Origin: a virus
Lineage: Duplodnaviria; Caudoviricetes
IMG/VR virus record: IMGVR_UViG_3300033564_000222
Coordinates: 1 to 31,005 of that record
Strand: one strand, 5' to 3'
DNA length: 31,005 nucleotides
Positions 10,170 to 31,005 of the stretch are shown in pieces. The notes under the pieces were generated by a model. The model searched no databases. It was not told where the DNA came from and saw only the letters and a list, made by a program, of their open reading frames with translations. Both the position numbers and the translations under genes were made by a program. Positions within the stretch are counted from its first letter, which is position 1; each line of letters begins with the position of its first letter.

Positions 10170-10180
10170 AATTTTTCCAT

Positions 10181-10203: not shown

Positions 10204-10217
10204 TTAATAATCGAGTC

Positions 10218-10649: not shown

Positions 10650-10660
10650 TAGTTACCTCC

Positions 10661-11856: not shown

Positions 11857-11858
11857 TT

Positions 11859-12682: not shown

Positions 12683-12693
12683 TATCTTACTTC

Positions 12694-13754: not shown

Positions 13755-13770
13755 TTTAATCTCCTATTAA

Positions 13771-13797
13771 TAAAAATGGGGGCGGGGCAGCCCCCAT
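13771..13797 (-). terminator. Intrinsic terminator after the major capsid gene
   Basis: - strand ATGGGGGC-TGCCCC-GCCCCCAT-TTTTA. Confidence 0.75.
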
Positions 13798-13818
13798 AAG
13801 ACAATCACTTAACGCACA

Positions 13819-14781: not shown

Positions 14782-14809
14782 GTTTATTTCCTTTTTGAAT
14801 ACTTAATAA

Positions 14810-15454
14810 TTAAATTTCTTGCTGGTTTACGTATTTTAAAAAATTTGGGTTGACCATCCCCAAAGTAGGTTTAGCAGTCTTGCCGTCGGCAGATGTTTGA
14901 GGCGACTGTTGCCCTGCTTTTTGGTTAGAAACAACAGGCTTCCTTGCTTCAATTTCTGTTTTCCACGAATCGTAATCTTTTTCTAAAAGCAATTGGTATT
15001 TGCTTTTTTTGTCAGCTTCTTCAAAATAACCGCCCTCTTCGGTAGCCAACTTTCCATCAGCAACTGCTTTTTCAAGGAAGACTTTGATTTTGGCTTTGTT
15101 TTCTGCGTCAACTCTTTTTTTCATTTCCTCTTCGTAAGACTTGGTTTTGTTTGCCTGTTCGCCGATGATGTCTTTCAAAGTTTTAATTTCACCACCGAAT
15201 GTTTCGGCGATTTTTTTCAATTCGCTCTGCATTTCTTCAAATGTGTAACTTGATTTTGGGGGTTCCTGCTTCGGTGGGCGATTAAATAATGATTTAAACT
15301 TTTCCATAAAGTCTGGTGGTGTGTCTTGAGGCGAAACAATAGATTCAATTTCCTCCGACGTAAGTTTATCAACGCCACCCTTTGTGGCGGCAAGTTTGAT
15401 AATTGCTTCTAATATTTTTGCAAAATCCATAGATGAATCCGTTAAATTAAACAT
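14810..15454 (-). CDS. Capsid scaffolding protein (no protease domain)
   Basis: Charged coiled coil with FLEKAVADGKL, like the Mu gpI/gpZ scaffold region. The listed TTG at 15484 lies inside the promoter, so the start is likely 15454 or 15430. Confidence 0.68.
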   Translation of the reverse strand: MFNLTDSSMDFAKILEAIIKLAATKGGVDKLTSEEIESIVSPQDTPPDFMEKFKSLFNRPPKQEPPKSSYTFEEMQSELKKIAETFGGEIKTLKDIIGEQANKTKSYEEEMKKRVDAENKAKIKVFLEKAVADGKLATEEGGYFEEADKKSKYQLLLEKDYDSWKTEIEARKPVVSNQKAGQQSPQTSADGKTAKPTLGMVNPNFLKYVNQQEI

Positions 15455-15481
15455 AGCGACATATTCGCCACAATCACAGTT

Positions 15482-15555
15482 CAAAATTAATGCTATACTA
15501 TTTTAATTTATAGTCATATACGACTATTTATAATTTTTTTTTGACTTTAATTTTG
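15482..15555. promoter_or_regulatory. Back-to-back late promoters with a central palindromic site
   Basis: TAATTTTG (-7 element) on - at 15482..15489 and on + at 15548..15555. ATAGTC-N6-GACTAT at 15510..15527 lies exactly 20 nt from each. Confidence 0.72.
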
Positions 15556-15590
15556 AATTAGACTTTTTGAACTGTTAAAGTGGTTAAATT

Positions 15591-15953
15591 ATGCCGTTTA
15601 TTAGCAAAGTTGAATTTGAAAAATTAGCCGGAGCATCCGGTACTCGAAAATTAATTGCCAAATTAACCGATGAAGATTTCGATGGCTTTGAAGCTCAAGC
15701 AGCTTCAATAATAACGTCGATAACGTCGCTTGATGTGCCGGCAGATAATGCAGACGCCCCCAATTGGGTTAAACTGCCTGCAATGTGGCTAATTCAATAC
15801 ATTTACGCTCAAGGTGCCGACAGCAAAGAAAACACCGAAACCTATAACAACATTTACGACAAAGCAATTAACATTTTAACAAATCATAGCGACGGGGGAG
15901 ATTCTCCTGCACGGTCAATGACTGGTAGCATGGAGGGCTGTTATGAATTTTAG
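15591..15953 (+). CDS. Head-tail adaptor (Mu gp36/DUF1320-like)
   Basis: 120 aa with MPFISK..F N-terminus, A...I.S, P.WVK and YDKAI..L motifs. Confidence 0.62.
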   Translation: MPFISKVEFEKLAGASGTRKLIAKLTDEDFDGFEAQAASIITSITSLDVPADNADAPNWVKLPAMWLIQYIYAQGADSKENTETYNNIYDKAINILTNHSDGGDSPARSMTGSMEGCYEF

Positions 15954-16368
15954 CGATACGGAAGCTGCATTAGTAAAAAAGCTAACTGACTACGCAACAG
16001 GGTTGCAAGTGCCAACGGACAACATAGTAGTTGGCAAAATTGGCGAAATACCAGCGATGGCTTCTCCTTTTATAGCGATTTACACAGCTCCTTATGCTGG
16101 GAAGAAGTATGAATCTGGCATGGTTGAAGGGGCGATGGATACAACAATTCTTTGCAGTGCCTCTGCTGAGGTTTCTGATGTCCAAGCTCACAAATCATCC
16201 GCAATTTTGCTAACATCACGGATCTTAAATTTATTAACGGCATTTCGAGGGTTTGAATTGAAAAGCATTGATATATTTAGCATATCAATGGAAGATTGCA
16301 AAATAGCATTAGAAGGTTTGTTTTGGGGCGTCGATTATTACGAAGATTTATATACGGAAGAAGATTAA
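15943..16368 (+). CDS. Tail terminator / completion protein (Mu gp37-like)
   Basis: 141 aa after the gp36-like gene, with PAMASPFIAIY motif. Call is largely positional. Confidence 0.5.
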   Translation: MNFSDTEAALVKKLTDYATGLQVPTDNIVVGKIGEIPAMASPFIAIYTAPYAGKKYESGMVEGAMDTTILCSASAEVSDVQAHKSSAILLTSRILNLLTAFRGFELKSIDIFSISMEDCKIALEGLFWGVDYYEDLYTEED

Positions 16369-16892
16369 TGAGAAGAGCAAGAAAAGCATTAAAACTGCCA
16401 TTGGATACGCAGATTAGAATAGCTCGTGATTTTTTACAAAAAAAGAAATCGACACCAAACTATTCCATGAAAGACCATGCAATTAAACACAATTGCAGTT
16501 ACGAGCAGGTTCGCTCTTATGTCGAAAAACTAAAATTAGGTCGTTATGCTTTTACAGACTCCTCGGTTTCGCAAGCAAGAATGGCAGAAATTTACAACGA
16601 GCTGCATATTAAAATTGATGAAAGCGATGTTGATGTTTTGATGCAACAAATTTTAGTAATCGAAGAGCAATTAAAAAGAACCGATTCTTTCAAGCCAGAA
16701 GAGCGGACAAAAATAGCTATGGAATTGGCAAAGCTTAAAAAGTTACGCGAAGACGTATTGAAAGCACAAAATGAAAATGAAAAATATACACTAAAAAAAG
16801 AATTCCTTTACAGATTTGCAAAGCGATTGAAATCGACAATAACCGAAAGCGATGCAATTAAAATAGCTCGTGAGGTTGCCGATGGACTTTAA
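16368..16892 (+). CDS. Terminase small subunit (putative)
   Basis: Start at 16368 by TAATG coupling. N-terminal HTH (SMKDHAIKHNCSYEQVRSYV), helical C-terminus, overlaps TerL. Confidence 0.6.
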   Translation: MRRARKALKLPLDTQIRIARDFLQKKKSTPNYSMKDHAIKHNCSYEQVRSYVEKLKLGRYAFTDSSVSQARMAEIYNELHIKIDESDVDVLMQQILVIEEQLKRTDSFKPEERTKIAMELAKLKKLREDVLKAQNENEKYTLKKEFLYRFAKRLKSTITESDAIKIAREVADGL

Positions 16893-18468
16893 AAGTGTAT
16901 TCCGGCAAGAGCTTGACAAAGAGATAGCTTTATGGCTTAGAGATTATCAACTTCGCTCGTCTATTGAAGCCAGCACTGGATTTGATGAAAGCGAACTTAC
17001 GGAAGACAAAAGGCAAAAACGGTTACAATTGGCACAAAAAGACTTCTGGGCATTTGACCGGATCTATTTCCCATCAAAAATATATAGGCAAGGGTTTTCC
17101 AAGCCAGCAACATTTCATCATAGAATTGTCGAAATCATGAATCTTTCTGGCATTCATTTTATAGCCGGTCCAAGAGCTTTCGCAAAATCAGTAACAGGTC
17201 GTAAATTCCAACTATGGGAACTATTGACAAGGAAAAAGCGATTTACAGGAGCTATTTCAGAAGATTTGCCACCTGCACAGGCATACATTGCTTTTATGCT
17301 CACATTCCTTTCGCAAGGTCGCATTATGCAGGATTTTCGACCAGATATACAAATTGCTTCAAAAGACGTTTTGCAATTTTCTTGCACTCTTTTCCCTTCC
17401 GGTACTGCCGTTTATAAAGCCTTCTCAATCGATCGTTCAGTACGCGGTCAATTGGAAGGTTTGGATAGACCAGAAAGTTTAGTCGCCGATGATATTGAAA
17501 CATTAGACAGCTCTTTTACAAATGAAGCTGTAAGCAAAAGATTAGCTAAATTGCAAGAAGCTTATGAATCTTTGGATGTAAGTTCAGCGAATTTGACAGT
17601 TTTTGCGAACAATTTTGATAGAAGGTGCCTAACCAATCGACTAATTGAAGAGCAAGAAAAATTCAGCGATGAGGAATTGCAAGAAACAAGGCTAAAAGTT
17701 CACGTATTTAGAGCATGGGAAAAGGGACGTTCACTATGGCGTTCACGTTTCCCTGCAAATTCCGAAGCTGATTTACGCAGAATGTTAGGCGTTACTTCCG
17801 AATCATCATGGCAAGGCAACTATCAACAAAATCCAATGCCAGCTGATGGCGAAATTTTCAAACGAGAATATTACCAAGAGTGGAGTGAATTGCCAAAAGA
17901 TTGCAGAGGTGTCATCTATACCGACCAAAACTTGGCAAAAAAAGGAAAAGGTGACACAACTGCAATCACTGCATGCTTGTTTTCCCCAAAAACAGGCAAA
18001 TTCTATATCAATAGTGCTGTATGTCGCTCTTTCAGTAGTTCGTTAGAATTGTTCAACAACATCCTTTCGATGATGACGAGAGAAATTGTACAGGTTTGCT
18101 TTGACGGTAACGTGTCGCAAGAAAGCTACTGGAGAGATTTATTAGATGCCCATGGGGATAACAACGAGGACATCCGACTTCTAGACAATTATTCCGTCTT
18201 CAAAAGATATAAAACTGACGAGCTTTCAGCCAACTGCCAATTGCTTTATGAACAAAGCAAAATTCTATTCCCACCAGGGTTCGCAAATTCAAAAGATGGC
18301 AAACAATACCTCTCACAGCTTTTTTCTTTCAGAGGGAAAAAGGCAGGGAAAACCGATGACGCACCAGATTCGCTGATTTGCTCTATTCAAGCAATTTTTG
18401 ATAGAGGTTTTGGTCGTCGCTCTGGAACTAATGATTATAAAGTTTTCACTTTTAAGGATAAGATATGA
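16882..18468 (+). CDS. terL: Terminase large subunit (Mu gp28-like)
   Basis: Walker A variant GPRAFAKS, RG...RP.SLVADDIE Walker B, YQQNP, nuclease motifs YTD..GKGD.TAI and TDDAPDS. GAGG RBS before 16882. Confidence 0.92.
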   Translation: MDFKSVFRQELDKEIALWLRDYQLRSSIEASTGFDESELTEDKRQKRLQLAQKDFWAFDRIYFPSKIYRQGFSKPATFHHRIVEIMNLSGIHFIAGPRAFAKSVTGRKFQLWELLTRKKRFTGAISEDLPPAQAYIAFMLTFLSQGRIMQDFRPDIQIASKDVLQFSCTLFPSGTAVYKAFSIDRSVRGQLEGLDRPESLVADDIETLDSSFTNEAVSKRLAKLQEAYESLDVSSANLTVFANNFDRRCLTNRLIEEQEKFSDEELQETRLKVHVFRAWEKGRSLWRSRFPANSEADLRRMLGVTSESSWQGNYQQNPMPADGEIFKREYYQEWSELPKDCRGVIYTDQNLAKKGKGDTTAITACLFSPKTGKFYINSAVCRSFSSSLELFNNILSMMTREIVQVCFDGNVSQESYWRDLLDAHGDNNEDIRLLDNYSVFKRYKTDELSANCQLLYEQSKILFPPGFANSKDGKQYLSQLFSFRGKKAGKTDDAPDSLICSIQAIFDRGFGRRSGTNDYKVFTFKDKI

Positions 18469-18749
18469 GTTTTGAATATAAAAACACTTGCCCATTGATT
18501 AATGATGCAGCAAAAAGCATAAAAGAAGGGTTATACGACAAGCTTTCAGAAAGTTTCAGCTCTAAAACTGCTACTGCAATGTCCATTGACATTTATGATT
18601 GGATCGAAGAGTACATTGAAGATGTTAGAGAAACTAACAGCAAAATGAGAGAAGAAGCCGACAATCAAGTTTGCAATTTGGAAGATGAAAATGAGAGATT
18701 GCAAGCTATAATCAAAGAATTAGAGCAACAAATTATAGATTTATCTTAG
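18465..18749 (+). CDS. Hypothetical phage protein (coiled-coil C-terminus)
   Basis: 94 aa, ATGA overlap with terL, NTCP.I...E..R..N..MRE pattern. Confidence 0.65.
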   Translation: MSFEYKNTCPLINDAAKSIKEGLYDKLSESFSSKTATAMSIDIYDWIEEYIEDVRETNSKMREEADNQVCNLEDENERLQAIIKELEQQIIDLS

Positions 18750-18753
18750 GGTT

Positions 18754-19039
18754 TTAAAATGGCATTTATTTGGAATATTTTGAGGATGGCTTGTAATGAG
18801 TTCAAAAGATTCTTCCGATTTTGAAATTGGTCAGTCAGTTTTTCTGAAAACCGACATCGCCCAATATGAACGGATAGTAACAGGCATATATATACGCCCT
18901 GAAGGGATTACGTACACGTTAGTGAATGAAACTACAGAATCTTATCATTACAGCTTTGAAATTTCGAGCAAAATAAACTTAGGCAAAAAACTTGGCTTCA
19001 ATAATCAATAGGTGTTAAAATGGCATACATTTGGAATAT
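18754..19039 (+). repeat. 25-bp imperfect direct repeat duplicating the portal start
   Basis: TTAAAATGGCATTTATTTGGAATAT (18754..18778) vs TTAAAATGGCATACATTTGGAATAT (19015..19039), 23/25 identical. Confidence 0.85.
18796..19011 (+). CDS. Small hypothetical protein (SH3-like FxIGxxV motif)
   Basis: FEIGQSVFLKTD...RIVTGI...YTL...YSFEIS; GAGG upstream. Confidence 0.65.
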   Translation: MSSKDSSDFEIGQSVFLKTDIAQYERIVTGIYIRPEGITYTLVNETTESYHYSFEISSKINLGKKLGFNNQ

Positions 19040-20243
19040 ATTTAAAACGCGGAACTATCCAACATTCCCAGAACTTTTCGCTGCACAGGTGAAAGCTGAT
19101 AATGAAAAGGCAGAAAACCGCGATGTCCGGCAATTAATGTCCGCATTAATGCAACTGGAAGTTGTCAACGAGCGTGTAAGTGGCAATATAACAACTCGCA
19201 AAACAGCAGTCAAATCATTTGATTGGAAGATTACAGCCGATGACAAAAGCAACACACAACATGCCGAACAGTGCAGAATAGCTGAACGGCGTTTAGAGCG
19301 TGCAATCAACTCTATCTTTGACTTTAGAATCCAAGCAGCGATGTATGGGGTTTTTGCTCTCCAATGGGATTGGTCGAACCTATATTCTGACGGCAAAAAG
19401 ATGCCTTCTTTGTTTAAAAGATTTGATCCAACTGAAATAGAGAAGTATAGCGATTTTGAGGTTGCTTTTTTAGATGCAAGTTCAAGCACTTTGAAAAGAG
19501 ATTTTGTTTTATCTGTCAATGATTTGCAAAATAATTACATTTTAGAGATTAATTCCGATTTCAGAAGAGGCGGAGTTTTGCGACGCATAATTCAAACAGG
19601 CGGAATTTTACTTAATGACAACTTAAAAGAGTGGTCAAATTTCAATAAAAAGCTAAAAGGGATTGTGCAGGCGACTTATCAACGCGGAGCGACTGACGAT
19701 GAAATTACATCGGCAGAATCAGCCGTTCAATCTGTTGTGAGCAATAACTACACTATGTCGTCTGATGCCATTAGCTTTATGTTTCACTCGATGACCGACG
19801 CAAAAGGAAGCACATCTTTTGAAACTCTTGTTGCTAAAATGGAAACTGCAATTTCGATTGCAATTTTAGGTCAAGCCAACACAACCGAACTACCAACATC
19901 TGGTGGAAGTCGTGCAGCTTTACAAGTTTTGGCGAAAATGTCATCTGACATATTTTTGAGTGATAAATATGCGACTGAATTATTAGTTAATCAGCTGATC
20001 GCACAAGATTACAGGGTTAATTTTGATTCTTCGGCTGTTTACGCACCATGGCATTTTGAAATTACAATCCCAGAAGATGTTGACATGACGGAAAGAGCTG
20101 ATTTTATAGAGACTTTGAAAACCAATGCCATTCCAACTACTTCTGATGATGTTTACTCAATTTTGCGATTGAATAAGCCGGACAATACACCAGACATACT
20201 TTTTGAAAAGGCTGAAGAACCAGCAGGTCAACAATTCTTTTAG
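19020..20243 (+). CDS. Portal protein (Mu gp29/DUF935 family)
   Basis: RKTAV..DW, A.MYGV...W and ISIAILGQANTTE...GGSRAALQV motifs typical of DUF935. Confidence 0.9.
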   Translation: MAYIWNIFKTRNYPTFPELFAAQVKADNEKAENRDVRQLMSALMQLEVVNERVSGNITTRKTAVKSFDWKITADDKSNTQHAEQCRIAERRLERAINSIFDFRIQAAMYGVFALQWDWSNLYSDGKKMPSLFKRFDPTEIEKYSDFEVAFLDASSSTLKRDFVLSVNDLQNNYILEINSDFRRGGVLRRIIQTGGILLNDNLKEWSNFNKKLKGIVQATYQRGATDDEITSAESAVQSVVSNNYTMSSDAISFMFHSMTDAKGSTSFETLVAKMETAISIAILGQANTTELPTSGGSRAALQVLAKMSSDIFLSDKYATELLVNQLIAQDYRVNFDSSAVYAPWHFEITIPEDVDMTERADFIETLKTNAIPTTSDDVYSILRLNKPDNTPDILFEKAEEPAGQQFF

Positions 20244-20253
20244 GAAGTAGGGG

Positions 20254-20793
20254 ATGCTAAAATTAGAAGTTACATTAACGGAAGCTGATTTAAAAAAAGT
20301 AGCTTTAAAAGCAGTGGAATTGATTAAAAAAAGAACTGCATCCGGCAAAGACGCAAAAGGCAGTGCTTTTAAAAAATATTCCGAGCGGTGGTTCGCAAGA
20401 CCTGCGGGTGGCATTACAAGAAGCAAAATGAAATTGCTATCGAACGAGGCTAAAAGAAGCAATGATAATGTAGTTTTTTTCAAAACAAAAGCTGGCAAAT
20501 CTTGGCTGTTGATAAACGGATATAAAAAGTTCAAATCTATTGTTTATCCTGATGAATTTCAAGGTGGCACAGTGAACCTGAGAGCGACTGGCGATATGTT
20601 GGACGGCTTGGGGTACATCAATGCGGATTCAAAGGCTATGAAATTCACGTTGGGCTGGGTGGATACCGAGTTGGCTGAAAGGGCTTTCTTTAACGAAGAA
20701 AAAGGACGCTCTTTGTTGGGTTTGACTGACGATGAAATTTCAATTTTAAATGATTTCGCTGCCAATCTTGCAAACATAAGTTTTAAGCAATAA
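20254..20793 (+). CDS. Virion morphogenesis protein (Mu gpG-like)
   Basis: IKKRT.SG.D..G..FKKYS, VNLRATGDML and R.LLGLT..E motifs. Confidence 0.72.
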   Translation: MLKLEVTLTEADLKKVALKAVELIKKRTASGKDAKGSAFKKYSERWFARPAGGITRSKMKLLSNEAKRSNDNVVFFKTKAGKSWLLINGYKKFKSIVYPDEFQGGTVNLRATGDMLDGLGYINADSKAMKFTLGWVDTELAERAFFNEEKGRSLLGLTDDEISILNDFAANLANISFKQ

Positions 20794-20820
20794 AAAAGCC
20801 CGCATTTGCGGGCTTTTTTT
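20792..20820. terminator. Bidirectional intrinsic terminator
   Basis: AAAAAAGCCCGC-ATTT-GCGGGCTTTTTTT between convergent genes. Confidence 0.9.
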
Positions 20821-20986
20821 ATCTTCTCATCAAAATATAGCTGCCGTAATCCTCGACCGACCAGCCGGCTTTATCGGCTTTTTTTTTGAACACTTCAGGA
20901 TTGTCCATTTCTTTATATTCTACACGCATTTGCGTACAAATTGGTGAACATGCTTTCACCCACGAATTGAATGTATATTTTTTCAT
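20819..20986 (-). CDS. 55-aa hypothetical protein (not in ORF track)
   Basis: MKKYTFNSWVKACSPICTQMRVEY...ILMRR*, GGAG RBS, stop abuts the terminator. Confidence 0.6.
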   Translation of the reverse strand: MKKYTFNSWVKACSPICTQMRVEYKEMDNPEVFKKKADKAGWSVEDYGSYILMRR

Positions 20987-20996
20987 TTCTACTCCA

Positions 20997-21530
20997 CTAA
21001 TTGCTTATATATTTATCAGCATATTTTACCGCATTTGCAGTCAGAATAGGATACACACCTGCTTTAAACTGTTCAAGAGAGTTGTATTTATTAATTTCTA
21101 TGCCTATAAACCTTTCCAAAGAACTACGCAACACCATGCAAGATTCATAAGTGCCGTTTTTATAATAAGCAACGACTGTAACCATTTTTAAGGATGGATA
21201 ATAATAGAAATACCTTGCTGGATCAATTAAAAAGTGAGCTGCAAGAACAGTTTTGTTTGCGAAATAATCTGCATTCAAATCGTTTTCTTTTAATTGAATT
21301 GTCAAAGTTTCGTTTTCGCCGTCGTATATTACCGAATCGACGACTCCTTTTGTAAATTCGCTTTTTATATTTTCTATTAACTCTGATTCAAACTTTGCAT
21401 TTTCAGCGGATCTCTTTGCATCTTCTGCGTCGAAATCCTCTTTATTTGTTATATAAACAATTGCAAACAATAACAACACTGCAATAGGGAACGATACGGC
21501 AATTAAGCCTGTTTTTACTGATTTTTTCAT
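20997..21530 (-). CDS. Membrane-anchored periplasmic/surface protein
   Basis: Start MKKSVK at 21530 (AAGG RBS). TM GLIAVSFPIAVLLLFAIVYIT followed by a soluble domain. Confidence 0.7.
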   Translation of the reverse strand: MKKSVKTGLIAVSFPIAVLLLFAIVYITNKEDFDAEDAKRSAENAKFESELIENIKSEFTKGVVDSVIYDGENETLTIQLKENDLNADYFANKTVLAAHFLIDPARYFYYYPSLKMVTVVAYYKNGTYESCMVLRSSLERFIGIEINKYNSLEQFKAGVYPILTANAVKYADKYISN

Positions 21531-21540
21531 AGTGAACCTT

Positions 21541-21720
21541 TTAAAATAAGTGATCGAATAGTGATTCAATTGCAAATAATGTGGCAAATATTATGATGGC
21601 AAATGCCACTGATAGCCATCTTGTTTTTCGCTTTTCACGTGCCATATATTCATCCATATCGTCGTGATAGCGGCGTTTTTCTGGGCGGTTGCCCATATTG
21701 CGTAGGTCTGACCATTTCAT
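21541..21720 (-). CDS. 59-aa single-TM protein (not in ORF track)
   Basis: MKWSDLRNMGNRPEKRRY...WLSVAFAIIIFATLFAIESLFDHLF*; AAGGAG upstream. Confidence 0.62.
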   Translation of the reverse strand: MKWSDLRNMGNRPEKRRYHDDMDEYMAREKRKTRWLSVAFAIIIFATLFAIESLFDHLF

Positions 21721-21746
21721 TTCATAAACTCCTTAATTTCCACCTG

Positions 21747-21777
21747 CAAAATTATAAATTATTTTGATTTATGCAGA
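21747..21777 (-). promoter_or_regulatory. Bacteroidota-type promoter for the membrane-protein cassette
   Basis: TAATTTTG at 21747..21754 (- strand), with TCTG 19 nt upstream. Confidence 0.5.
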
Positions 21778-22107
21778 CAGTATTAGTGCTTTTTTATTAG
21801 TAAAATGTCCAAGAATCTCTTCAATGATTTCATACTCATACCTATTTTTCAAAAATATGTAATCTTCTATAATCATAATAGAATTTAGGACTGTCGCGTG
21901 GTCATAACCGCCGACGCAATGACCGACTGTTTTCAGAGGCAGGTTATACACTCTTGCGAGTATATAAGAAGCGATTTGCCTTGCGGTGAGTATTTCATGC
22001 TTTTTTGACCGGCTTAAAATGCTCTCAATAGGGATGCCTGTTTTTTGGGCAACCACTTCCAGAACTTCATCGCGTAAAGCCTCATTTAGTATATTCCGAT
22101 TATTCAT
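21769..22107 (-). CDS. Stand-alone DnaA domain IV (Bac_DnaA_C) HTH protein
   Basis: ILSRSKKHEILTARQIASYI...LKTVGHCVGGYDHATVLNSI matches the DnaA C-terminal signature. Confidence 0.85.
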   Translation of the reverse strand: MNNRNILNEALRDEVLEVVAQKTGIPIESILSRSKKHEILTARQIASYILARVYNLPLKTVGHCVGGYDHATVLNSIMIIEDYIFLKNRYEYEIIEEILGHFTNKKALILSA

Positions 22108-22333
22108 TGTTTATCCTTTTAATCTGTAATTTTAATTTGCCTTTTTCGCTTCTTCCTGCTGACAATAGGCGAATATTGTGCAGCATTTCATAATTATCGG
22201 CGATGTCGTTTATTTCAAGCCATAAGGCATGAATTGCCTCTTGCTCTGTCATCTCCTTTTGCTTTGGGGGTTTGAGATCGCCAAATATGTTCTTTAAAAA
22301 TTCTGGTGTTAAGGTACCTATTGAGTCGCTCAT
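22100..22333 (-). CDS. Hypothetical protein
   Basis: Start MSDSIG at 22333 with AAGGAG RBS and TAATG coupling. Confidence 0.6.
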   Translation of the reverse strand: MSDSIGTLTPEFLKNIFGDLKPPKQKEMTEQEAIHALWLEINDIADNYEMLHNIRLLSAGRSEKGKLKLQIKRINNE

Positions 22334-22560
22334 TATTTGCTCCTTATATTGCAATCTATTAGAATATACCCTTTAGCTTGACCTTCCAACTCCGCGAACC
22401 TGCAATGACCAGTGTTGCGGTCATTATAAGGGCAAAAAGCATTCTTGCACAACGACAAGTCTTTTAAAGCTGGATGCTCTATCATTGTAACCATGAACGT
22501 ACCTACTTCACTTGCGAAGACTGTTGTGCCATCCATGTATTCCTTGCTAACCAATTCCAT
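22333..22560 (-). CDS. Hypothetical protein (Cys-containing)
   Basis: Start MELVSK at 22560 with GGAGGAG RBS and TAATG coupling. Confidence 0.6.
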   Translation of the reverse strand: MELVSKEYMDGTTVFASEVGTFMVTMIEHPALKDLSLCKNAFCPYNDRNTGHCRFAELEGQAKGYILIDCNIRSK

Positions 22561-22727
22561 TATTTGCTCCTCCAATTAATTTGCTGTTTGCAATGAGGGC
22601 AGTCCGCTTTTTTATCTAACCGGCTTTCGCAATTTGGGCAATAGAATGTGAACCATTCATTCCCAAATATTGTTTTACCGTGACTGACCCTAACAACCTT
22701 TAATACTTTATTTTTCATTGTTTTCAT
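22560..22727 (-). CDS. 55-aa zinc-ribbon protein (not in ORF track)
   Basis: MKTMKNK...YCPNCESRLDKKADCPHCKQQINWRSK*; ATGA and TAATG overlaps with both neighbours. Confidence 0.68.
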   Translation of the reverse strand: MKTMKNKVLKVVRVSHGKTIFGNEWFTFYCPNCESRLDKKADCPHCKQQINWRSK

Positions 22728-22909
22728 CGTTTTTTATATTTTACGCATGCTGTTTTGTTACAGTTGATTTTTTGTAATTTGTTAAAAGTCCTGTTTGAAG
22801 CAGTAACACCACAGTATTGGATGTTACGACCTCCGCACCGCCAACTTTGCCGGTTTTGGCATGTCCGGCAGGTTGGAGTTTTTTCGTTTGTTTTGTCAAA
22901 TAATTCCAT
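22724..22909 (-). CDS. Small Cys-rich hypothetical protein
   Basis: TCRTC...YC...C...AC..Y pattern common in small phage proteins. Confidence 0.62.
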   Translation of the reverse strand: MELFDKTNEKTPTCRTCQNRQSWRCGGRNIQYCGVTASNRTFNKLQKINCNKTACVKYKKR

Positions 22910-22910
22910 A

Positions 22911-24212
22911 TTACCATTTTAGATAAAATACAGGTGGATATACTTTGTTGTTAAAGTTTTTTTGTCGGTTTAATCGCCTTAAAGTTTCAAAATCTGCATA
23001 CGAATCAAAGTTAGAGCTATTGAGAATTTCAAGCATTAACTCTATATTGCTTTCGACGGCATTCTCTTCAACGTAATACTCTCTTTTTTGCAACAATACA
23101 TTCGCTTTATCAAATATTGCTTGTTTTTCTTCTTTGACTTTAGATAGCAATTCTGATTTGTTTGGCGTGGTTTTTTTTGGCAGGCTTTCTGTTTCAATCA
23201 GCCTGCGGTTTGCTTTTTTATATTCTTCGTGAAGCTCCAGTATTTGCTTTTCGACATCTGGGCTGTAACGATAGTTAAACATGATTTCAGAACTTTTATT
23301 CCAGTCATTATTCCGCATTGTCGTGTTATGATCGGAAAGTCGCAGAACATAAATATCATCGCTTAAATGGCTGTCTGGCAATTGTTTTTTTATTTTTAGG
23401 TAAGTAGATATTGAACTACCAGATTTTGACTTCACAACGTCAAATTTTGCACCGATTTTTTCTATCGCTTTTATAAGATTTTTATTGTTCGTTATTTTGT
23501 CAATAATTGCATTTAGCAAGTCTTTTTCTTCCACAGGTGCCACCTCTTTTTTAGAATCAACAGAATCAACAACTGGTTCCCAATGATGGCGGCAGTTATA
23601 GCCACCCATATATGCTTCAACTGGTTCGCGTTGTCCGTTACGCATTTTCCGTATTTCAGATATTGAAAAAACCTTGCCAACATTTCGTTTGCAGAGGTCA
23701 TGCTCTGTCCCTGATGTTGGACCTGCATATTTGAAATTTTCAACACCTGCGGACAATGCCTGTTGAATTGTGTTTAGTCTGTTGAACCCTTTTTTTGCAG
23801 TTCTGACAATCGTATTTGCTCTAAATTCGCCAAGATTAAATTTTTTGCTAAGGCTTTTTGAAAGTTCGCTGGCAGATTTGCCATCTTTTAAACCCTCTTC
23901 AACAGTTTTAATTGCTTCTTCTGGGCTATTTTTCCAAACTGCAACCAAATCTTTGTCGGCTTCTTTTAAAACTTTTGTTGCAATTTGCCTTGCTTCTGGC
24001 TTCGCAGTAGCTCCGAATAAAAACTCTTTGTATCGCTTCATTTCGGCTTCAATATCAGCAAAATTCCGCTTTTTATCGGTTTCAAATGCTTTTTTTGAAC
24101 TTTTCAAATAAGCAGTCAAACTTTCGGATATTTCTGCTTGTGATTTACCTGCGTTTATGCCTGCTTTGACAATGTCGCGAGCTTTCTTTTTTATCAATGT
24201 TATTTTTGCCAT
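22911..24212 (-). CDS. MuF (gp30-like head morphogenesis / minor capsid) protein with C-terminal extension
   Basis: RA.TIVRT, FKYAGP...LC...VGKVF and GGYNCRHHW motifs, followed by about 215 extra residues. Confidence 0.8.
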   Translation of the reverse strand: MAKITLIKKKARDIVKAGINAGKSQAEISESLTAYLKSSKKAFETDKKRNFADIEAEMKRYKEFLFGATAKPEARQIATKVLKEADKDLVAVWKNSPEEAIKTVEEGLKDGKSASELSKSLSKKFNLGEFRANTIVRTAKKGFNRLNTIQQALSAGVENFKYAGPTSGTEHDLCKRNVGKVFSISEIRKMRNGQREPVEAYMGGYNCRHHWEPVVDSVDSKKEVAPVEEKDLLNAIIDKITNNKNLIKAIEKIGAKFDVVKSKSGSSISTYLKIKKQLPDSHLSDDIYVLRLSDHNTTMRNNDWNKSSEIMFNYRYSPDVEKQILELHEEYKKANRRLIETESLPKKTTPNKSELLSKVKEEKQAIFDKANVLLQKREYYVEENAVESNIELMLEILNSSNFDSYADFETLRRLNRQKNFNNKVYPPVFYLKW

Positions 24213-24466
24213 AATTCTATCTGCCTGTAGTTATGTCGATTTTCAATGGTTTTGAAATATTGATTTTGTAGTGCCGGAATTAACTCTTCAGCTTCTTCAA
24301 TTGGCACATGCTTTTTGCCCTGTCTAATGCTGACTAACTTTTGGACTGCCCAAAACTGTGTAAAACACTCTTGGCATTCTAAAAGCCGCTTTTCTGTTTC
24401 CACATCTCGCCGATTAGGCGAATGGTAAACTCTTATGTCGTCAGATTGGCAGACAGGGCATAGCAT
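24200..24466 (-). CDS. Ogr/Delta-like (NrdR-N-like) zinc-finger transcription regulator
   Basis: MLCPVCQS...RVYHS...KRLLECQECFTQF. Confidence 0.68.
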   Translation of the reverse strand: MLCPVCQSDDIRVYHSPNRRDVETEKRLLECQECFTQFWAVQKLVSIRQGKKHVPIEEAEELIPALQNQYFKTIENRHNYRQIELWQK

Positions 24467-24876
24467 TAGTTCAACTCTTCTAAAGTTATTATCATTTCAG
24501 CTATTTTCACGGCATCAATTAAGTAGGTTTGACCATTAATTTCAACTATTACATAATGTTCGTATGACATTACATTGTTTAGCATCACTCTTTCTTTCAC
24601 GGAATAAAGCGAAACTGTATGGTTTTTAATTGTAGTAGTCCAGTAGTGGTTTTTATTCCAAAATTGCGACGGGGGCACGTCTAATTTTTTGCAAAAATGC
24701 TCAATAAAATCAATAGGCGATTTTTGCTCTTCTATTTGCGATTTAACAGACTCAAATATTTCAACTCCGCTTTTTGAAGTGCTGTTTTTTTGAGTTGGTT
24801 GAGCTTTCTTTTTTTCAACCGTCAATAATTTGGCATTGTTGACTTTAATGGCTGGTTTTACAACAGCTTTTTCCAT
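24466..24876 (-). CDS. Hypothetical protein
   Basis: 136 aa, translationally coupled within the early operon. Confidence 0.65.
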   Translation of the reverse strand: MEKAVVKPAIKVNNAKLLTVEKKKAQPTQKNSTSKSGVEIFESVKSQIEEQKSPIDFIEHFCKKLDVPPSQFWNKNHYWTTTIKNHTVSLYSVKERVMLNNVMSYEHYVIVEINGQTYLIDAVKIAEMIITLEELN

Positions 24877-25841
24877 AGGTTTTTCTCCTGAATTTTTTCT
24901 AATAATATTTCAACATCTACGAGGTACTTTTCGCCATCAGCGTTAAACACATATTCGCTGCCTTTTGGCACGGTGTTTTTATCATCTTTTCTTACGTAGC
25001 TTGGGTAATCAATTGTAAGTTGTTTCGCGTCTTCTTTTGTTGGGTTGGCTTCTTTTTTCCTCTCTTTAATGACTTTAATCGGCATCAGTGTATTGCGATA
25101 AAAGTCATAACCAAGTGGTTTAAAGATAGCTTTGATTTTTTCTATTAATTCATTATAAACTGTCCCTGCTTGGGTGCCATTTTCCAATGCTTTTTGGCTA
25201 TCCATCCAAAACTGAACTAATTCATTCGCTTTTTTTGGACTGCCCCCAACTTGAGTCACGGCATCGACAAAAGATTGAGCTATATCGTTGCTCATAATTG
25301 TAGCCAACATCTCCGCTTTTTCGTAAGATATGCCCAAATGTTTTGCAATTGATTGAGGAATTTTAAGCGGTTTATCGAGATTAATACCCAGCTTTTCCGT
25401 TAAGGCAAAAACGGCATTATCTACGTCGTTTGCTGTGAAGTTAACTCCTTTTAACATTTTAAGTTGCGACAAGTGGCTCAATTTTTGCTTGTACTCCGAA
25501 TATTCGCGTCCTTTTATTGCTTCATTTTTTACTCTTTGGAGGTTGAAAGCTAATAAAAGATAGTCGCAAAAATCACGGTTTGGGGCAGAGTCAATTATAC
25601 AAGGCAATTCTGCAATGTTGTTTAGTTGTGCCGCTTTCAACCTACGGTGACCAGAGAGAAGAGTATAGCGCTTTTCTACATCAGGGTAAGGTAGCTTTGA
25701 TTCGACGACGTGGAGAGGCTCCAAAATGCCAAATTTAGCAATGGATTCTTTAAACGACTCGTCAATATCAGGTTCGCCATAAATTGAACTGTTTATCGGA
25801 TTTACTTCTATTTCATCAATGTTGATTAAGATAGCTTCCAT
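24858..25841 (-). CDS. ParB/Srx N-terminal domain protein
   Basis: IDEIEVNPIN, SIAKFGILEPL.V and YTLLSGHRRLKAA (GxRR) motifs. Confidence 0.85.
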   Translation of the reverse strand: MEAILINIDEIEVNPINSSIYGEPDIDESFKESIAKFGILEPLHVVESKLPYPDVEKRYTLLSGHRRLKAAQLNNIAELPCIIDSAPNRDFCDYLLLAFNLQRVKNEAIKGREYSEYKQKLSHLSQLKMLKGVNFTANDVDNAVFALTEKLGINLDKPLKIPQSIAKHLGISYEKAEMLATIMSNDIAQSFVDAVTQVGGSPKKANELVQFWMDSQKALENGTQAGTVYNELIEKIKAIFKPLGYDFYRNTLMPIKVIKERKKEANPTKEDAKQLTIDYPSYVRKDDKNTVPKGSEYVFNADGEKYLVDVEILLEKIQEKNLWKKLL

Positions 25842-25843
25842 GC

Positions 25844-26383
25844 TTATTCCACCTCGATCGCATTTTTAATTTCATATTGGAAGATCTCATCTTGAGTGAT
25901 TTCCAAGCCCATTGCTGACAATTCAGAATCGGATATTTCGCCACCTTTTTGGCATGCTAAAATGGCATCTTTATCCATTTCAATTTTAGTTCTTAAAAAG
26001 GTTTTTGCCCAAGTTACTGATTTTTCGATTAATCCAACAGCGGCTTTAATTGTGATGCCTTTTAGAGTTGACACCTTCGGAGGTGTTTGTCGGAAAAAGA
26101 CCGACCCATGTTTTAAATCAACGGATTTTTTCTTGCCAAATTCTTCCCTGTTTTCTTCGCAATAGGTTTTAATTGATTTTTCGATAATAGCTTTTTGCTC
26201 TCTCATTGGAGCTGTTTTTGCGGTTACTTCATTCCGTAATTGTTGTTCGGTTTCATTATATTGGTTTTCAATCAACATAATTTTTGCGTCTAATTGAGAT
26301 ATTTCAAACAACGCACCATCAACTTCATTAAGTGATGAGAATTCGATTGGTTTTGGTTCTGCGACCTTTGTTCTTTTAGCCAT
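25844..26383 (-). CDS. gam: Mu Gam-like host-nuclease inhibitor (DNA end-binding)
   Basis: YCEENREEFGKKKSVDLKHGSVFFRQTPPKV, LRTK.EMDKDAIL and GL.I.Q.E.F motifs. Start MAKRTK at 26383. Confidence 0.88.
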   Translation of the reverse strand: MAKRTKVAEPKPIEFSSLNEVDGALFEISQLDAKIMLIENQYNETEQQLRNEVTAKTAPMREQKAIIEKSIKTYCEENREEFGKKKSVDLKHGSVFFRQTPPKVSTLKGITIKAAVGLIEKSVTWAKTFLRTKIEMDKDAILACQKGGEISDSELSAMGLEITQDEIFQYEIKNAIEVE

Positions 26384-26720
26384 TTTGTAGCCCATAATTA
26401 AGTTTAACATTCAGATCTTTAATTTCAGCTCTTAACGCGTTGTTTTCTGTCAACGCACGATACAAAAAGATGTCTTTGCTTTCCATTGTTACGCAGTAGC
26501 GTATTAATTCAGCTTTTGGATTGATAATTAACCACTCAATAGTGTCGATGACCTTGTTCAGCTGTGAATGTAACTCCGCACCAATCGCAGAAGCATCTTC
26601 GCCGCCGATGTAAACCCAACTGTTGAATTTTTTTTCAAGCAATTTTAACATCCTTAACTGCCTTTTAAGATTGTTTTTAGCGATTTCATTTCGCTCGGAT
26701 GTCATTACAATCTCTTCCAT
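26376..26720 (-). CDS. Hypothetical protein
   Basis: 114 aa, TAATG-coupled in the early operon. Confidence 0.6.
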   Translation of the reverse strand: MEEIVMTSERNEIAKNNLKRQLRMLKLLEKKFNSWVYIGGEDASAIGAELHSQLNKVIDTIEWLIINPKAELIRYCVTMESKDIFLYRALTENNALRAEIKDLNVKLNYGLQNG

Positions 26721-27373
26721 TAGTTTACCCTCGTTTGCAAATCGTTTTGCAAATTCGTTTTATTTGTTTGGACGACATTCAGCATTTGACCAGCCCTAAC
26801 GGTTAGGTACTGTAATTGCTCGATTGATGCGTCGCTCCAGTAGAATTTTGTAGTGTCTTTGATGCGTTGTTTGAGCATGCCTTCTATTAGCCATTTGTTT
26901 AGAAGCGGGTTCACGAAAGTTGCAAAAAGGCGGTTGCGAACTCGCTCTGGCAATTGGTTTGCTCTAAATTTTTCTTGCATCCAATTTCGGAGAGCATTCC
27001 CGGAAAGAGTATGCCCTTCGATGATGTATTCCCAGCTGTCATAATTTTGATTAAGCAAAGTCATTTCAAGAGTGATTGCCATAAGTTTTGCAACCAATCT
27101 ATCATGCTTTTGTTTGGCTGTTTCGCTGTCTTTATACGTCCTTTGCCTATCTTCTTGACGTTGGAGCATTGCAGATATAAGATGATTTGCTTGCTTTTCT
27201 GTTAACTGGCTATAATGCTCAATTTTAGGATATAGAGAAGTCATAAAGCTATCTCTAACTATTTTTACAGTGTCCGAATTGCTTCGCTCGTGTGGCAAAA
27301 CAAGAGCTTGAGCTGCATAATATAGTTTTTTGCGTTGCTCTGGTGTAATGTAATTTTCTGTTAATACTGACAT
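26720..27373 (-). CDS. GemA/gp16 (DUF1018)-like protein
   Basis: ITPEQRKKLY...HYSQLTEKQANHLISAM pattern, in a Mu-like early region. Confidence 0.5.
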   Translation of the reverse strand: MSVLTENYITPEQRKKLYYAAQALVLPHERSNSDTVKIVRDSFMTSLYPKIEHYSQLTEKQANHLISAMLQRQEDRQRTYKDSETAKQKHDRLVAKLMAITLEMTLLNQNYDSWEYIIEGHTLSGNALRNWMQEKFRANQLPERVRNRLFATFVNPLLNKWLIEGMLKQRIKDTTKFYWSDASIEQLQYLTVRAGQMLNVVQTNKTNLQNDLQTRVN

Positions 27374-27381
27374 AACCTCAC

Positions 27382-27798
27382 CTATCCAATTAATGCCTTA
27401 ATATCAGCATCGATTATTTCACCGTTCGCTTCCATCAACTGCATTTCTTCGTATATGCCGTCGAATTTAGCTAAACAAGCATTATATTCGCTTTCATTAG
27501 TACGTAGTTCAGCTTTTAATGCGTCAAGTGTTTTCATCGGTTCAGAAGCGGCTAAGGCTTGTTTAAATTCAGCTTTTTTAGCCTTAACATCTGTTTCAAT
27601 TTCTTGTATCAATTTAGCTTGATATGTAGTAACTGCTGATAATTGTCCTAAATTCATTAGAACGTTTTGGATAAAGTCTTTTTTTGACTTTGGCAAGCTA
27701 TTGGCTTTTTCAAGTGCTTCTTGTAGCTTTTGTGGCGAATATGAAGCTTTTGTTTGCACTGGCACAATGGCTTGATAATTTTTTGGGCGACGTCCCAT
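27382..27798 (-). CDS. Coiled-coil hypothetical protein occupying the MuB position
   Basis: 138 aa, helical, with an N-terminal GRRPK basic motif and no Walker A/B. Confidence 0.65.
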   Translation of the reverse strand: MGRRPKNYQAIVPVQTKASYSPQKLQEALEKANSLPKSKKDFIQNVLMNLGQLSAVTTYQAKLIQEIETDVKAKKAEFKQALAASEPMKTLDALKAELRTNESEYNACLAKFDGIYEEMQLMEANGEIIDADIKALIG

Positions 27799-27800
27799 AG

Positions 27801-29744
27801 TTATAACTCCTTAAGTTGGGTTTGAATTTTAGACCTCAACTCTCTTAATTTAGAAAAATTTGATTTAACTGGTTGGATTGCATTTGTGATTGAAGTTGAT
27901 TCTACTAATTGCTTTGATGCTTTGTTGATGTCGTTACCAGAAGCGTCTTGAGCATCTGACAATTGATTAATCCAGCCTTTGCCGTCAATCAAATTGCGGG
28001 GGGAATCAACGGCAATAGGCAGGATCTTTGAGGAAGATTTTTTGATAACATCGTCAAGTTGGCGATTCGCTGTTTCTCTGATTTTACGAGACTCTTTGCG
28101 GAACTCTTCCGATTCGGCTAAGCTTTCAGCGATGTAATTTTTAAAGATGCCAATAAATTCTGGGTTGGCTCTATTATCAGCTCTCATAACAAGGTATTGA
28201 CCTTCATACCCTGGCAAATTACAAGGCATGACAGCAACTTTATGAGATATTAAATTGGAAGTGATTGCATCGCTAACTATATTGACATTTTGACCATCAA
28301 TAGTGCAGGTTAAACGATGGCGATTTTTAATAGTAATAAGATTTTTTTGAGATGTCCTATTTGGCTGTGCAAAGTATATGATGTTTGCATAACGTTCAGC
28401 ATTAAGCTGAGGGAGCATCCTGTCGTTATTGTGATTGTAATGATCAAAAGCTTCTGCAATTGTGGGTTGGAAGCCGTGGCGGCGGCTAACTTTGCCAAAA
28501 ATCGATATGCGAGGACGGTTCACGAAGGTTTCATAGAGCCAATTCCAAAGCATAAACCAATAATCTTCGTATTTTGTCAATTGCAAATCTAAAGGGAGAT
28601 TAGTTACGTTTGTTAAGTTAAAATAAGGCATTGCTGCACGAGTGAGAGTGACCGCTTCTTGACGTGATCCGCCTTGGTATTGCTTAGGGAAGTAAACCGC
28701 ATCAAATTCATCTTTTACAAGTCTAAATTGGCGTTCAATCATAGCTTTCCCTGCAAAGCGAGGCACGTGAGGCACGTTGTGGACTATTGGCGACGGAGGA
28801 CAACCGAAAAGTTGTGTAATCCAAGTTTGATTTTTGAAATTCATCAACTCTTCATCGGTATAAAGTGATTTTATAACTCCTTCGACATTCGCATTTTTCA
28901 TTGCTTGTGAATTTTCAATAACCCAAACGGTGTTAGGGTATAGCCCATATTGGAATGCGACTAATAAAATTCCACGAGCGACAGCTTCAGTCGTGATTTC
29001 ATCGCAAGGCATATAAAGTAACGGATAACGAGTTAAACCATCGATGAATGCCAAGCCTTTGGTCATAATCGCTTGACCGTTTTTATCAACCCAGGCATCA
29101 CGCTTAAAGTCATCGATTACAATTATACGACCGGCACCATAACCATCACCTGCTAACCCCGCAGATTCGAGCATCGCGAAATAATCATAACGTGGCACAG
29201 CTTCTGAAAGATCACTTTGGTTTCTTTTCATGTTGCGTTGGCGGATGTCTTCCCAGTTGCCGTCAGGATCAGAAAAGAAGACGCCTTTTATATCGCGATG
29301 GCGTTCAGATCGTTTAATTGCTTTGTAAAATCTTGTTGGGTCCGCATCGTTGAAGCCTTCTATTTGCAAATTGTTGCAAATTATCTCACATATCAATTTA
29401 AGATTAGCTTGGCTGTGGTTTATGTAAGATTCTTTTATCTTTTGGACCCCGACGCCCCAAGTTTTTTCGCTTATGCTTCTTGGTTTTGATTTGTCTGACC
29501 GTTCGGACCGTTTAGCAATAGATGCTGAAGTCGTTTGCACTGGTAGCATACTGTTGTATCCCCATAATGTTAATGCGTCGAAAGAATATAAGGATGTTGA
29601 TCTACCTCTTCCTGATGGAGATGGTATGCCATACATAAAGTAGTCATCAATGCCGATTTTTTCGCGAACATTCTTAACATTGATGCCTACAATGTCCGCT
29701 ATCTGCATAGGAGTTAACCCATCTTTATATTGTGATTTAATCAT
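27801..29744 (-). CDS. MuA-like DDE transposase
   Basis: N-terminal HTH (LTPMQIADIVGI...GRG...LY...L), RSERSDKSKPR linker, and RNase H core IVIDD, FIDGLTR, G.YP...IEN, KAMIERQF. Confidence 0.88.
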   Translation of the reverse strand: MIKSQYKDGLTPMQIADIVGINVKNVREKIGIDDYFMYGIPSPSGRGRSTSLYSFDALTLWGYNSMLPVQTTSASIAKRSERSDKSKPRSISEKTWGVGVQKIKESYINHSQANLKLICEIICNNLQIEGFNDADPTRFYKAIKRSERHRDIKGVFFSDPDGNWEDIRQRNMKRNQSDLSEAVPRYDYFAMLESAGLAGDGYGAGRIIVIDDFKRDAWVDKNGQAIMTKGLAFIDGLTRYPLLYMPCDEITTEAVARGILLVAFQYGLYPNTVWVIENSQAMKNANVEGVIKSLYTDEELMNFKNQTWITQLFGCPPSPIVHNVPHVPRFAGKAMIERQFRLVKDEFDAVYFPKQYQGGSRQEAVTLTRAAMPYFNLTNVTNLPLDLQLTKYEDYWFMLWNWLYETFVNRPRISIFGKVSRRHGFQPTIAEAFDHYNHNNDRMLPQLNAERYANIIYFAQPNRTSQKNLITIKNRHRLTCTIDGQNVNIVSDAITSNLISHKVAVMPCNLPGYEGQYLVMRADNRANPEFIGIFKNYIAESLAESEEFRKESRKIRETANRQLDDVIKKSSSKILPIAVDSPRNLIDGKGWINQLSDAQDASGNDINKASKQLVESTSITNAIQPVKSNFSKLRELRSKIQTQLKEL

Positions 29745-29749
29745 GTGGT

Positions 29750-29956
29750 TTAATTTGATGTTACTAATTTGTTAAATTCAGATCTTGTTTCATTTCGTAC
29801 ACGTAGCTCATCTACTACATCCGCGAGGTATTTGTTTGAACCTCTTTTTATGCTGTTATAAACTGTTACAGGTGCGGCACCTCTATTTGTAGCAACTTTT
29901 AGAAGTACACCTTTATATTCGCCTTTGCGAAAATCAACGTTCTTTAAGTTTTCCAT
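29750..29956 (-). CDS. Ner/Cro-like HTH regulator
   Basis: 68 aa with HTH (LLKVATNRGAAPVTVYNSIKRG), first gene of the early operon, divergent from the repressor. Confidence 0.68.
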   Translation of the reverse strand: MENLKNVDFRKGEYKGVLLKVATNRGAAPVTVYNSIKRGSNKYLADVVDELRVRNETRSEFNKLVTSN

Positions 29957-29991
29957 ACGTTTTAAATTTTAAATGTTAAACAATTACAATT

Positions 29992-30023
29992 CAAAATTAA
30001 ATATTTATTTTGAATTAACCAAA
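29992..30023 (-). promoter_or_regulatory. Early promoter (Pe-like), Bacteroidota consensus
   Basis: TTTG (30023..30020)-N20-TAATTTTG (29999..29992). Overlapped by a 10-bp inverted repeat AATTCAAAAT (29988..29997) / ATTTTGAATT (30007..30016), a candidate operator. Confidence 0.65.
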
Positions 30024-30122
30024 TATTATTTGTAAAAAACCAAGAAAAATTTGTATTTAGCAAAGAATTATTTGCTTTTGGCAAATTGTGTATTAATTAA
30101 TTTCATATTTAACAAACTTTTA

Positions 30123-30153
30123 TTTGACTTTTTGAAATATTTATATATTTTTG
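30123..30153 (+). promoter_or_regulatory. Repressor promoter (Pc-like), Bacteroidota consensus
   Basis: TTTG (30123..30126)-N19-TATTTTTG (30146..30153). Confidence 0.62.
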
Positions 30154-30178
30154 CATATTGTTAATTTTATTAAAAAAA

Positions 30179-30574
30179 ATGAGTATTCATAAAAGAATTG
30201 TTGAGTTTGCAGAAAAGCGATACGGTAGTGTTGGGAAGCTGCAAAAAAAGGTAGAAGAAATATCCGGCAAAACGCAAGATATGTTTCGATTTACGAATGG
30301 GGTGAAGCCCAGCACGGTAATGCTACTATATTTACAAGAAGCTGGATGCAATATTAATTGGCTGCTAACAGGGGCTGTTTATAATAAAGGGGAATATCCA
30401 GAATATGATCCTGGTGGAGAGACTATAATCGGATTAAAGAATGAAATTGAGATACAGAAGCGGGTCCAAGACAATCAGAATAAAGTGATAATAGAAATGT
30501 TGTCTAATTTGGTTGCCAACACTCATGATGATTTGAAATTAATAAAAGAGAGTGTTGGAAAAAATGCCAAATAA
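30179..30574 (+). CDS. Phage repressor (XRE-type HTH, no S24 peptidase domain)
   Basis: Start MSIHKR at 30179. KPS...L...GCNINWLLTG HTH signature, coiled-coil C-terminus, divergent from the Ner-like gene. Confidence 0.8.
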   Translation: MSIHKRIVEFAEKRYGSVGKLQKKVEEISGKTQDMFRFTNGVKPSTVMLLYLQEAGCNINWLLTGAVYNKGEYPEYDPGGETIIGLKNEIEIQKRVQDNQNKVIIEMLSNLVANTHDDLKLIKESVGKNAK

Positions 30575-30577
30575 AAA

Positions 30578-30845
30578 CGTATTAAACGTATTAAATTATG
30601 GTTGTTTTGTGTTTGCGAATTGCCAAAATAAAGCGTATTATAACGTATTTAATTGATGATTATCGCGTATTAAACGTATTTTTGTTATTAATCCTTTTTT
30701 GTAACCAAATTAACGTATTTAATTCTTATCCTATTTGTAGTCGCCATATTTAATTGTAAATGCTCTTTTAATTTACAAAGGAAATATGTGTTGATTGAAA
30801 AAATGTTATTGCTTGGTTATATAGTAGTTTGGCAACGTGCGTATT
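30578..30845 (+). repeat. CGTATT repeat array near the repressor-side end
   Basis: CGTATT at 30578, 30587, 30634, 30644, 30666, 30675, 30714 and 30840. Confidence 0.85.
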
Positions 30846-30919
30846 AAATAAAATTCCCAAATAATGACCAAAACGCCCATAAAAACAGGACGAAACAAAA
30901 TTTATTAGAATACTTCTTT

Positions 30920-30935
30920 AATTTGGTAAAAAACA
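30920..30935 (-). repeat. Repressor-side phage end (terminal inverted repeat)
   Basis: - strand TGTTTTTTACCAAATT matches 363..378 at 14/16 positions. Confidence 0.8.
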
Positions 30936-31005
30936 ATATTGTTAATTTTATTAAAAAAAATGAGTATTCATAAAAGAATTGTTGAGTTTGCAGAAAAGCG
31001 ATACG
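30936..31005 (+). repeat. Exact 70-bp copy of 30155..30224 (repressor 5' region) joined to the CA end
   Basis: ATATTGTTAATTTT...GAAAAGCGATACG is identical in both places. The match begins immediately after CA at 30934-30935. Confidence 0.95.

Follow-up and report, generated by a model that had tools for sequence, protein, structure and literature searches.

A probable self-insertion junction at the right end of a transposable phage genome with no detectable MuB

The stretch of DNA analyzed here (the window), which is 31,005 nucleotides long and makes up an entire viral record, contains a whole transposable phage genome of 30,573 bp (363..30935) that begins with TG and ends with CA. Its limits were drawn from the terminal inverted repeats, the borders seen in two further contigs (L001 and L002), and the head, tail, and Gam genes. 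The tail-side repeat (TGTTTATTACCAAA at 363; 363..376, plus strand) starts with TG, and the repressor-side repeat (30922..30935, minus strand), which places the CA-3' end on the plus strand, is its near inverse, the two being alike at 13 of 14 positions. L001, a JGI contig, is identical to 29403-30935 and ends exactly at CA, and L002 carries the same phage left end with a different flank. Close to the right end lies a 131-aa gene (30179..30574, plus strand) for a putative CI-like repressor. Its product had no direct match in Pfam, PHROG, or NCBIfam, but it resembled the HTH_3 protein found at the same position in another phage locus, L021 (BLASTP E 2e-09), and its homologues in relatives matched repressor PHROGs. 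A promoter of the form TTTG, 19 bases, TAnnTTTG was predicted ahead of this gene (30123..30153, plus strand; box at 30146-30153), and a divergent early promoter of the same type was predicted at 29992..30023 on the minus strand; both predictions rest on matches to TTTG/TAnnTTTG, which we take to be the Bacteroidota promoter consensus.

On the minus strand, a small 68-aa gene (29750..29956) occupies the position of Ner and may act as its counterpart; a homologue stands ahead of the transposase in locus L003. It is followed by genes for a 647-aa protein with a MuA/TnsB-like fold (27801..29744), a 138-aa, likely coiled-coil protein in the usual place of MuB (27382..27798), a Mu Gam-like protein (25844..26410; PF07352, E 1e-28), and a protein with a ParB-N domain (24858..25841; PF02195, E 1e-07), the last of which was also found in relatives G078 and G062. 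A stand-alone DnaA C-terminal HTH protein (21769-22107) accompanies the ParB-N protein in the early operon, and the two are possible partners in target choice or in control of host replication. The large terminase and a Mu-type portal (16870..20243, plus strand) were identified by family matches (Portal_Mu, E 2e-24; terminase), as were a capsid and a tape measure protein. Neither GemA nor Mor/C was found among the 30 window proteins scanned, and the GemA matches in two relatives were weak and below threshold. Eight of the window's 15 CGTATT sites are clustered between the repressor stop codon and the phage end (30578..30845, plus strand), with none near the left end; these boxes are candidate binding sites for the repressor or the transposase.

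The predicted model of the 647-aa protein (pLDDT 88) matched TnsB (E 2e-11) and MuA (E 2e-09) of transpososomes in Foldseek, and the Atlas places it among Mu-transposase clusters. The protein had no match in Pfam, PHROG, or NCBIfam, and no relatives were found by sequence in viral contigs, in 50,697 phage records, or in the PDB. The predicted catalytic residues are D211, E277, and E337. In an alignment of 69 transposases the first and third columns were invariant (D211 in 69/69, E337 in 69/69), and position 277 was Asp in 35 sequences and Glu in 34. The window's transposase is one of the 34 family members that have Glu rather than Asp as the second catalytic acid.

No MuB could be detected. 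The MuB ATPase family AAA_22 had no match in the record at E<=1 (all 14 controls were found), the best match of the L021 MuB to the window had an E value of 1.4, and Walker A-like strings in the window occurred only in structural-gene or closed frames. Across 18 loci, BLASTP gave no match to MuB. For the five relatives whose ends we could delimit, the best E values were 0.033 to 4.5, and the match at 0.033 spanned only N-terminal residues 10-83. A MuB homologue was present on another contig in two of the five host genomes and in none of the other three, and the phage may still use an ATPase that has diverged strongly or that acts from another place in the host. Family searches with the 138-aa protein, including Pfam, PHROG, and NCBIfam, gave no usable match, and a complex prediction for it with the transposase (score 0.00) gave no usable answer either way. 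In 8 of 10 loci the gene after the transposase is an ORF of 122 to 155 aa, and the pairwise similarity among these ORFs is weak. An AT-hook role for this protein was considered and rejected, the motif being confined to the three closest homologues.

The alignment of 69 transposases was used as a search profile for relatives, and it matched 11 of 301 genomes of the class to which genome G001 belongs and 4 of 401 genomes of the phylum of G078, all four of which were already among those known. Seven loci with long flanks were then searched for every TG...CA pair bordered by a duplication of 4, 5, or 6 bp. Five were delimited, all in genomes of one class, and each of the five had a 4-bp duplication with a central TA: G078:C107:100162-131623 (31,462 bp, ATAT), G080:C1:2719883-2749477 (29,595 bp, GTAG), G173:C5:48182-77818 (29,637 bp, ATAC), G027:C16:33492-60921 (27,430 bp, TTAG), and G067:C4:32432-60030 (27,599 bp, ATAT). 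The G080 border pair ranked first of 17,734 candidates by both scores used. The G078 pair ranked first of 4,615 by combined score and fell outside the top three by 30-base identity, and the G027 and G067 pairs ranked first of 2,465 and 3,562, respectively, by 30-base identity and fourth by combined score. The G173 pair ranked third of 15,994 and was picked for the likeness of its ends to those of G080. The borders are supported by the similar sizes of the elements and by phage genes within and other genes beyond them, and a TGCAAA box near both ends is common to four of the five. Candidates with a central TA made up only 0.6 to 12% of the candidate lists (0.4% for G173), yet all five delimited relatives have one. 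The border search gave no resolved pair for the ends of G062 and G230, and G202, G196, G155, and G078:C129, which are on short contigs, stand outside the delimited set. That the window phage and its five delimited relatives are without a detectable MuB, and that the relatives make 4-bp duplications, can be regarded as largely shown.

A general taste for AT-rich surroundings was rejected as an account of these sites, only two of the five being more AT-rich than their flanks. The G027 prophage (L048:3493, L049) lies in a stretch of 20% G+C between two divergent host genes, presumably hrcA-like and purM-like. Two copies in G001 (L003:8527-8911 and L004:8519-8903) share an end region in which TG would follow TTAT, again NTAN; their other ends, terminase, and Gam were looked for and not found. 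A second layout, with the repressor and transposase in mid-genome and the terminase upstream, was seen in L045 and L054 (G080), L042-L059 (G173), and L052 (G230). Candidatus Kapabacteria bacterium is the source name attached to the 90% cluster of the G078 transposase, and the host of the window phage presumably resembles those of its relatives.

Beyond the right phage end the contig runs on for 70 bases (30936..31005, plus strand), and the last of these is the last base of the contig. A preliminary description of this DNA had held that this flank is an exact copy of 30155-30224, that the target lies 2 bases past the -7 element and 24 bases ahead of the ATG, 781 bp inside the same end, and that it falls between a promoter and a repressor ORF. 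All of this was borne out, with both the promoter and the repressor as predictions. The copy is identical at 70 of 70 bases with a spacing of 781, its target 4-mer is ATAT (30155..30158, plus strand), the distances from the TAnnTTTG box, from the ATG at 30179, and from the phage end agree, and the target is flanked by the predicted promoter box and by a gene that is repressor-like by its likeness to the L021 protein and by the PHROG matches of its relatives. The surrounding DNA has 16% G+C, and ATAT is also the duplication of G078 and G067. The letters preceding the two copies are unlike (A at 30935, C at 30154), which places the join precisely after the terminal CA with no microhomology, and the join creates no new promoter consensus. 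The further proposal of a strand-transfer junction draws support from this exact CA join and from the agreement of ATAT with the 4-bp, TA-centered sites of the lineage. We consider the self-join to be probably a genuine product of strand transfer because its target fits this rule, ATAT occurring at only 0.7% of phage positions (NTAN at 6.8%). One expectation, a 5-bp duplication at the reciprocal junction, did not hold, since the lineage duplicates 4 bp and ATAT would precede the left-end TG. The reciprocal junction itself was absent from 59 loci, searched with a pattern that permitted a longer spacer, and its pattern had five matches in viral contigs, all in unrelated viruses without further likeness. 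The pattern of the phage end had no match in viral contigs, nor did the exact pattern of the self-junction, in a collection from which the phage's own records may be missing.

The left flank of the window (1..362) is non-phage DNA that ends in ATAA. Because ATAA on the left and ATAT on the right do not form a duplication, the two flanks likely derive from different insertions. This bears on one alternative, in which the arrangement is fixed, either because a single clone carries a stable nested prophage or because a host locus beyond the end holds another repressor-like gene. The long left flank is what a resident prophage would show, but the 4-bp duplication is missing, the copy is 100% identical and starts at the target 4-mer, and other flanks occur in other data sets. 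We consider a fixed arrangement to be the least probable of the explanations weighed here, together with one regulatory reading taken up below.

We investigated how the right end continues in other data by aligning contigs from 8 of 12 listed sequencing runs to this end only. All eight are sets of contigs, which drop rare variants and so give only an indirect view of the reality and the rarity of the join; all but one of the loose contig ends were covered. Runs X1 to X4 are possibly the window's own source. Five of the eight runs (X1 to X5) reached the right phage end, and X6, X7, and X8 stopped short of it. X1 agreed with the first 8 letters of the copy, allowing for one possible difference, before continuing into 21 other letters; X2 departed from it after 3 letters; and X3 agreed for 4 letters and differed at the fifth. 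X4 and X5 ended after 5 letters, ATATT, which is compatible with the self-junction or with any other ATATT site. Thus, three of the five runs left the copy for other DNA, two stopped after 5 letters, and in none of the five did a contig continue into the copy past 30943 (8 letters). Contig depth was 0 across the last 40 bases in four of four runs and across 30948-31005 in the other four of four. Contigs of all five end-reaching runs crossed 30155 unbroken.

The flanks in X1 and X2 were non-phage, their best matches to the window being 16/21 and 18/27 letters. Five flanks had enough letters to be placed (window right, window left, X1, X2, and L002), and one of them was self. Variable flanks were seen at both phage ends in several data sets, which suggests that the phage occupies many host sites. 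TA stood at places 2 and 3 of the four flank letters in all seven readable flanks (window right and left, X2, X3, X4, X5, and L002; X1, with one uncertain letter, was omitted), and from these letters the window phage, too, would make a 4-bp duplication. Together with its genes, the flanks suggest that the phage would replicate by transposition and form virions.

A library chimera or an assembly artifact, in which a fragment of the phage end was ligated or misjoined to a repressor fragment, would account for a join that was seen in one assembly only and was absent from the eight runs and, by exact pattern, from viral contigs; the 70-base dead-end tail also suggests that very few reads lay behind it. 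A random join is unlikely to fall both on CA and on ATAT, however, there is no overlap that could have guided a misjoin, and the X1 flank shares just 8 letters with the internal site. We therefore regard an artifact as unlikely, though less so than the other alternatives.

The explanation that we think probable is that the last 70 bases of the contig record a single, rare self-insertion by the phage transposase, which the assembler retained from among many end flanks. Self-insertion has a precedent in the natural phage-into-phage junctions of the Pseudomonas saltovirus Ab30, at 0.4% of events (PMC5977238); at that rate one self flank in five would have a chance of about 2%, a figure that takes no account of the selection of the window for this very feature. 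The transposase would nick at the CA ends and attack NTAN sites with a 4-base stagger. With many host sites occupied, assemblies would break at or just past the phage ends, and here the assembler would have followed a lone molecule past the end, one whose target had been an ATAT within the AT-rich DNA of its own promoter region. If the end attacked the same strand of its own molecule, the products would be pieces of 781 bp and 29,796 bp with one end each; insertion into a sister copy would leave an identical junction. We lean modestly toward same-molecule attack, because a target at the same end, in this orientation, and within 781 bp would arise in about 2% of cases under even site use (a post hoc figure), and because PMC5977238 describes the intergenic segment next to the Mu repressor as an enhancer that is held with the ends. 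By either route the self-insertion was likely an accident with no regulatory role. Retroviral autointegration, in which an element that attacks its own DNA on the same strand gives rise to deletion circles, is an analogy to same-strand self-attack only, the event in the window being known from one linear junction.

The preliminary description had gone further, suggesting that self-insertion, if recurrent, could serve as a transposition-driven commitment to lysis. Several observations agree with recurrent, programmed insertion that severs the repressor from its promoter, or with a site that is at least a strong hot spot: the target lies just past the predicted -7 box, MuB was not detected, X4 and X5 both break off after ATATT, and one of the five placeable flanks is self. 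Recurrence did not find support, since none of the five end-reaching runs follows the copy beyond 8 letters and the contigs of all of them pass intact through the target. Commitment to lysis is also disfavored by the product itself. Insertion into a sister copy would add an intact promoter and repressor, same-molecule attack would part the two ends that are needed for replication, and the transposase would be made only after derepression. A programmed event or hot spot is therefore very improbable in our estimate, and we give marginally less credence still to the proposal that this MuB-less lineage repeatedly attacks the AT-rich repressor promoter near its own end, with self-insertion as an irreversible switch or a limit on replication.

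The preliminary description had pointed to the part of MuB in keeping Mu from inserting into itself and to the preference of MuB-less reactions for nearby targets in the same molecule, and the searches above found no MuB in this record. In wild-type Mu, 0 self-insertions were reported in about 10 million events, and in a MuB deletion there were 85 in 90 million reads; transposition without MuB was about a hundredfold lower (PMC7350765). Because most of the genome immunity of Mu is independent of MuB according to the same source, the lack of MuB alone does not predict frequent self-insertion. Background on immunity, with mention of protection by BAF, is given in PMC2837660. Ab30 provides a parallel, with phage-into-phage junctions as in the window, and also a difficulty for a single rare self-insertion: its first 900 bp are nearly spared from self-insertion and AT-rich DNA is cold (PMC5977238), whereas here the target lies 781 bp inside the end, and the DNA around it has 16% G+C.

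The window phage shares with Mu its TG...CA ends, an end repressor transcribed outward, a small gene followed by the transposase, Gam, and the Mu-type portal, and the predicted model of its transposase matches the Mu transpososome. It differs in having no detectable MuB, in its Glu as the second catalytic acid, and in the 27- to 31-kb genomes of its lineage, and the 4-bp, TA-centered duplication contrasts with the 5-bp duplication and CYSRG preference described for Mu (PMC8705779, PMC5977238). B3-like and Leptospira prophages are likewise delimited by a short duplication and have two genome layouts, as do the relatives here, but their duplication is 6 bp and their core includes TnpA and TnpB (PMC8705779). 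A CI-like repressor at the genome end is shared with hankyphage, Ca. Mubacviridae, fF4, and L021, all of which differ in having an ATPase adjoining the transposase; Bacteroidota transposable phages are described as carrying the ATPase (PMC12135933, PMC7761591, bioRxiv 2026.05.11.724261). The MuA of L021 (16136-20369, with conventional MuA and MuB) matched the window transposase only at E 0.82. Because this phage otherwise has its repressor, Gam, terminase, portal, and layout in common with the window, the comparison suggests a swap of the transposition module in one lineage or the other.

A self-junction alone would be ordinary; what is novel is a MuB-less lineage with a 4-bp, TA-centered duplication. 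No description of such a group was found in the literature covered, which consisted mostly of open papers and had the 2023 ISME J survey by Zhang et al. outside its scope. Where these sources treat the subject, TnpA and the TnpB ATPase make up the whole set of core proteins in transposable phages and duplications are 5 or 6 bp (PMC8705779), cores of 5 to 6 bp are used (PMC13626063), and a category termed "transposase without MuB" is not classed as Mu-like (bioRxiv 2026.05.11.724261). A MuB-less, 4-bp group would escape surveys of this kind because they define transposable phages by the ATPase and because their border finders assume repeats of 5 to 6 bp or longer (PMC8705779, PMC13626063, bioRxiv 2026.05.11.724261). 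Pfam, PHROGs, and NCBIfam likewise gave no match to the transposase. The lineage offers a natural system for a question of the Mu field, how targets are captured and self is avoided when MuB is lacking. It also supplies a candidate for a transposase that would work as a single protein, on a simple NTAN target. CheckV rated the record as 38% complete despite the presence of both ends, and on such a rating phages of this type may be catalogued as fragments. The 138-aa protein has been recorded from 9 contigs of up to 33,220 bp, which may hold further flanks.
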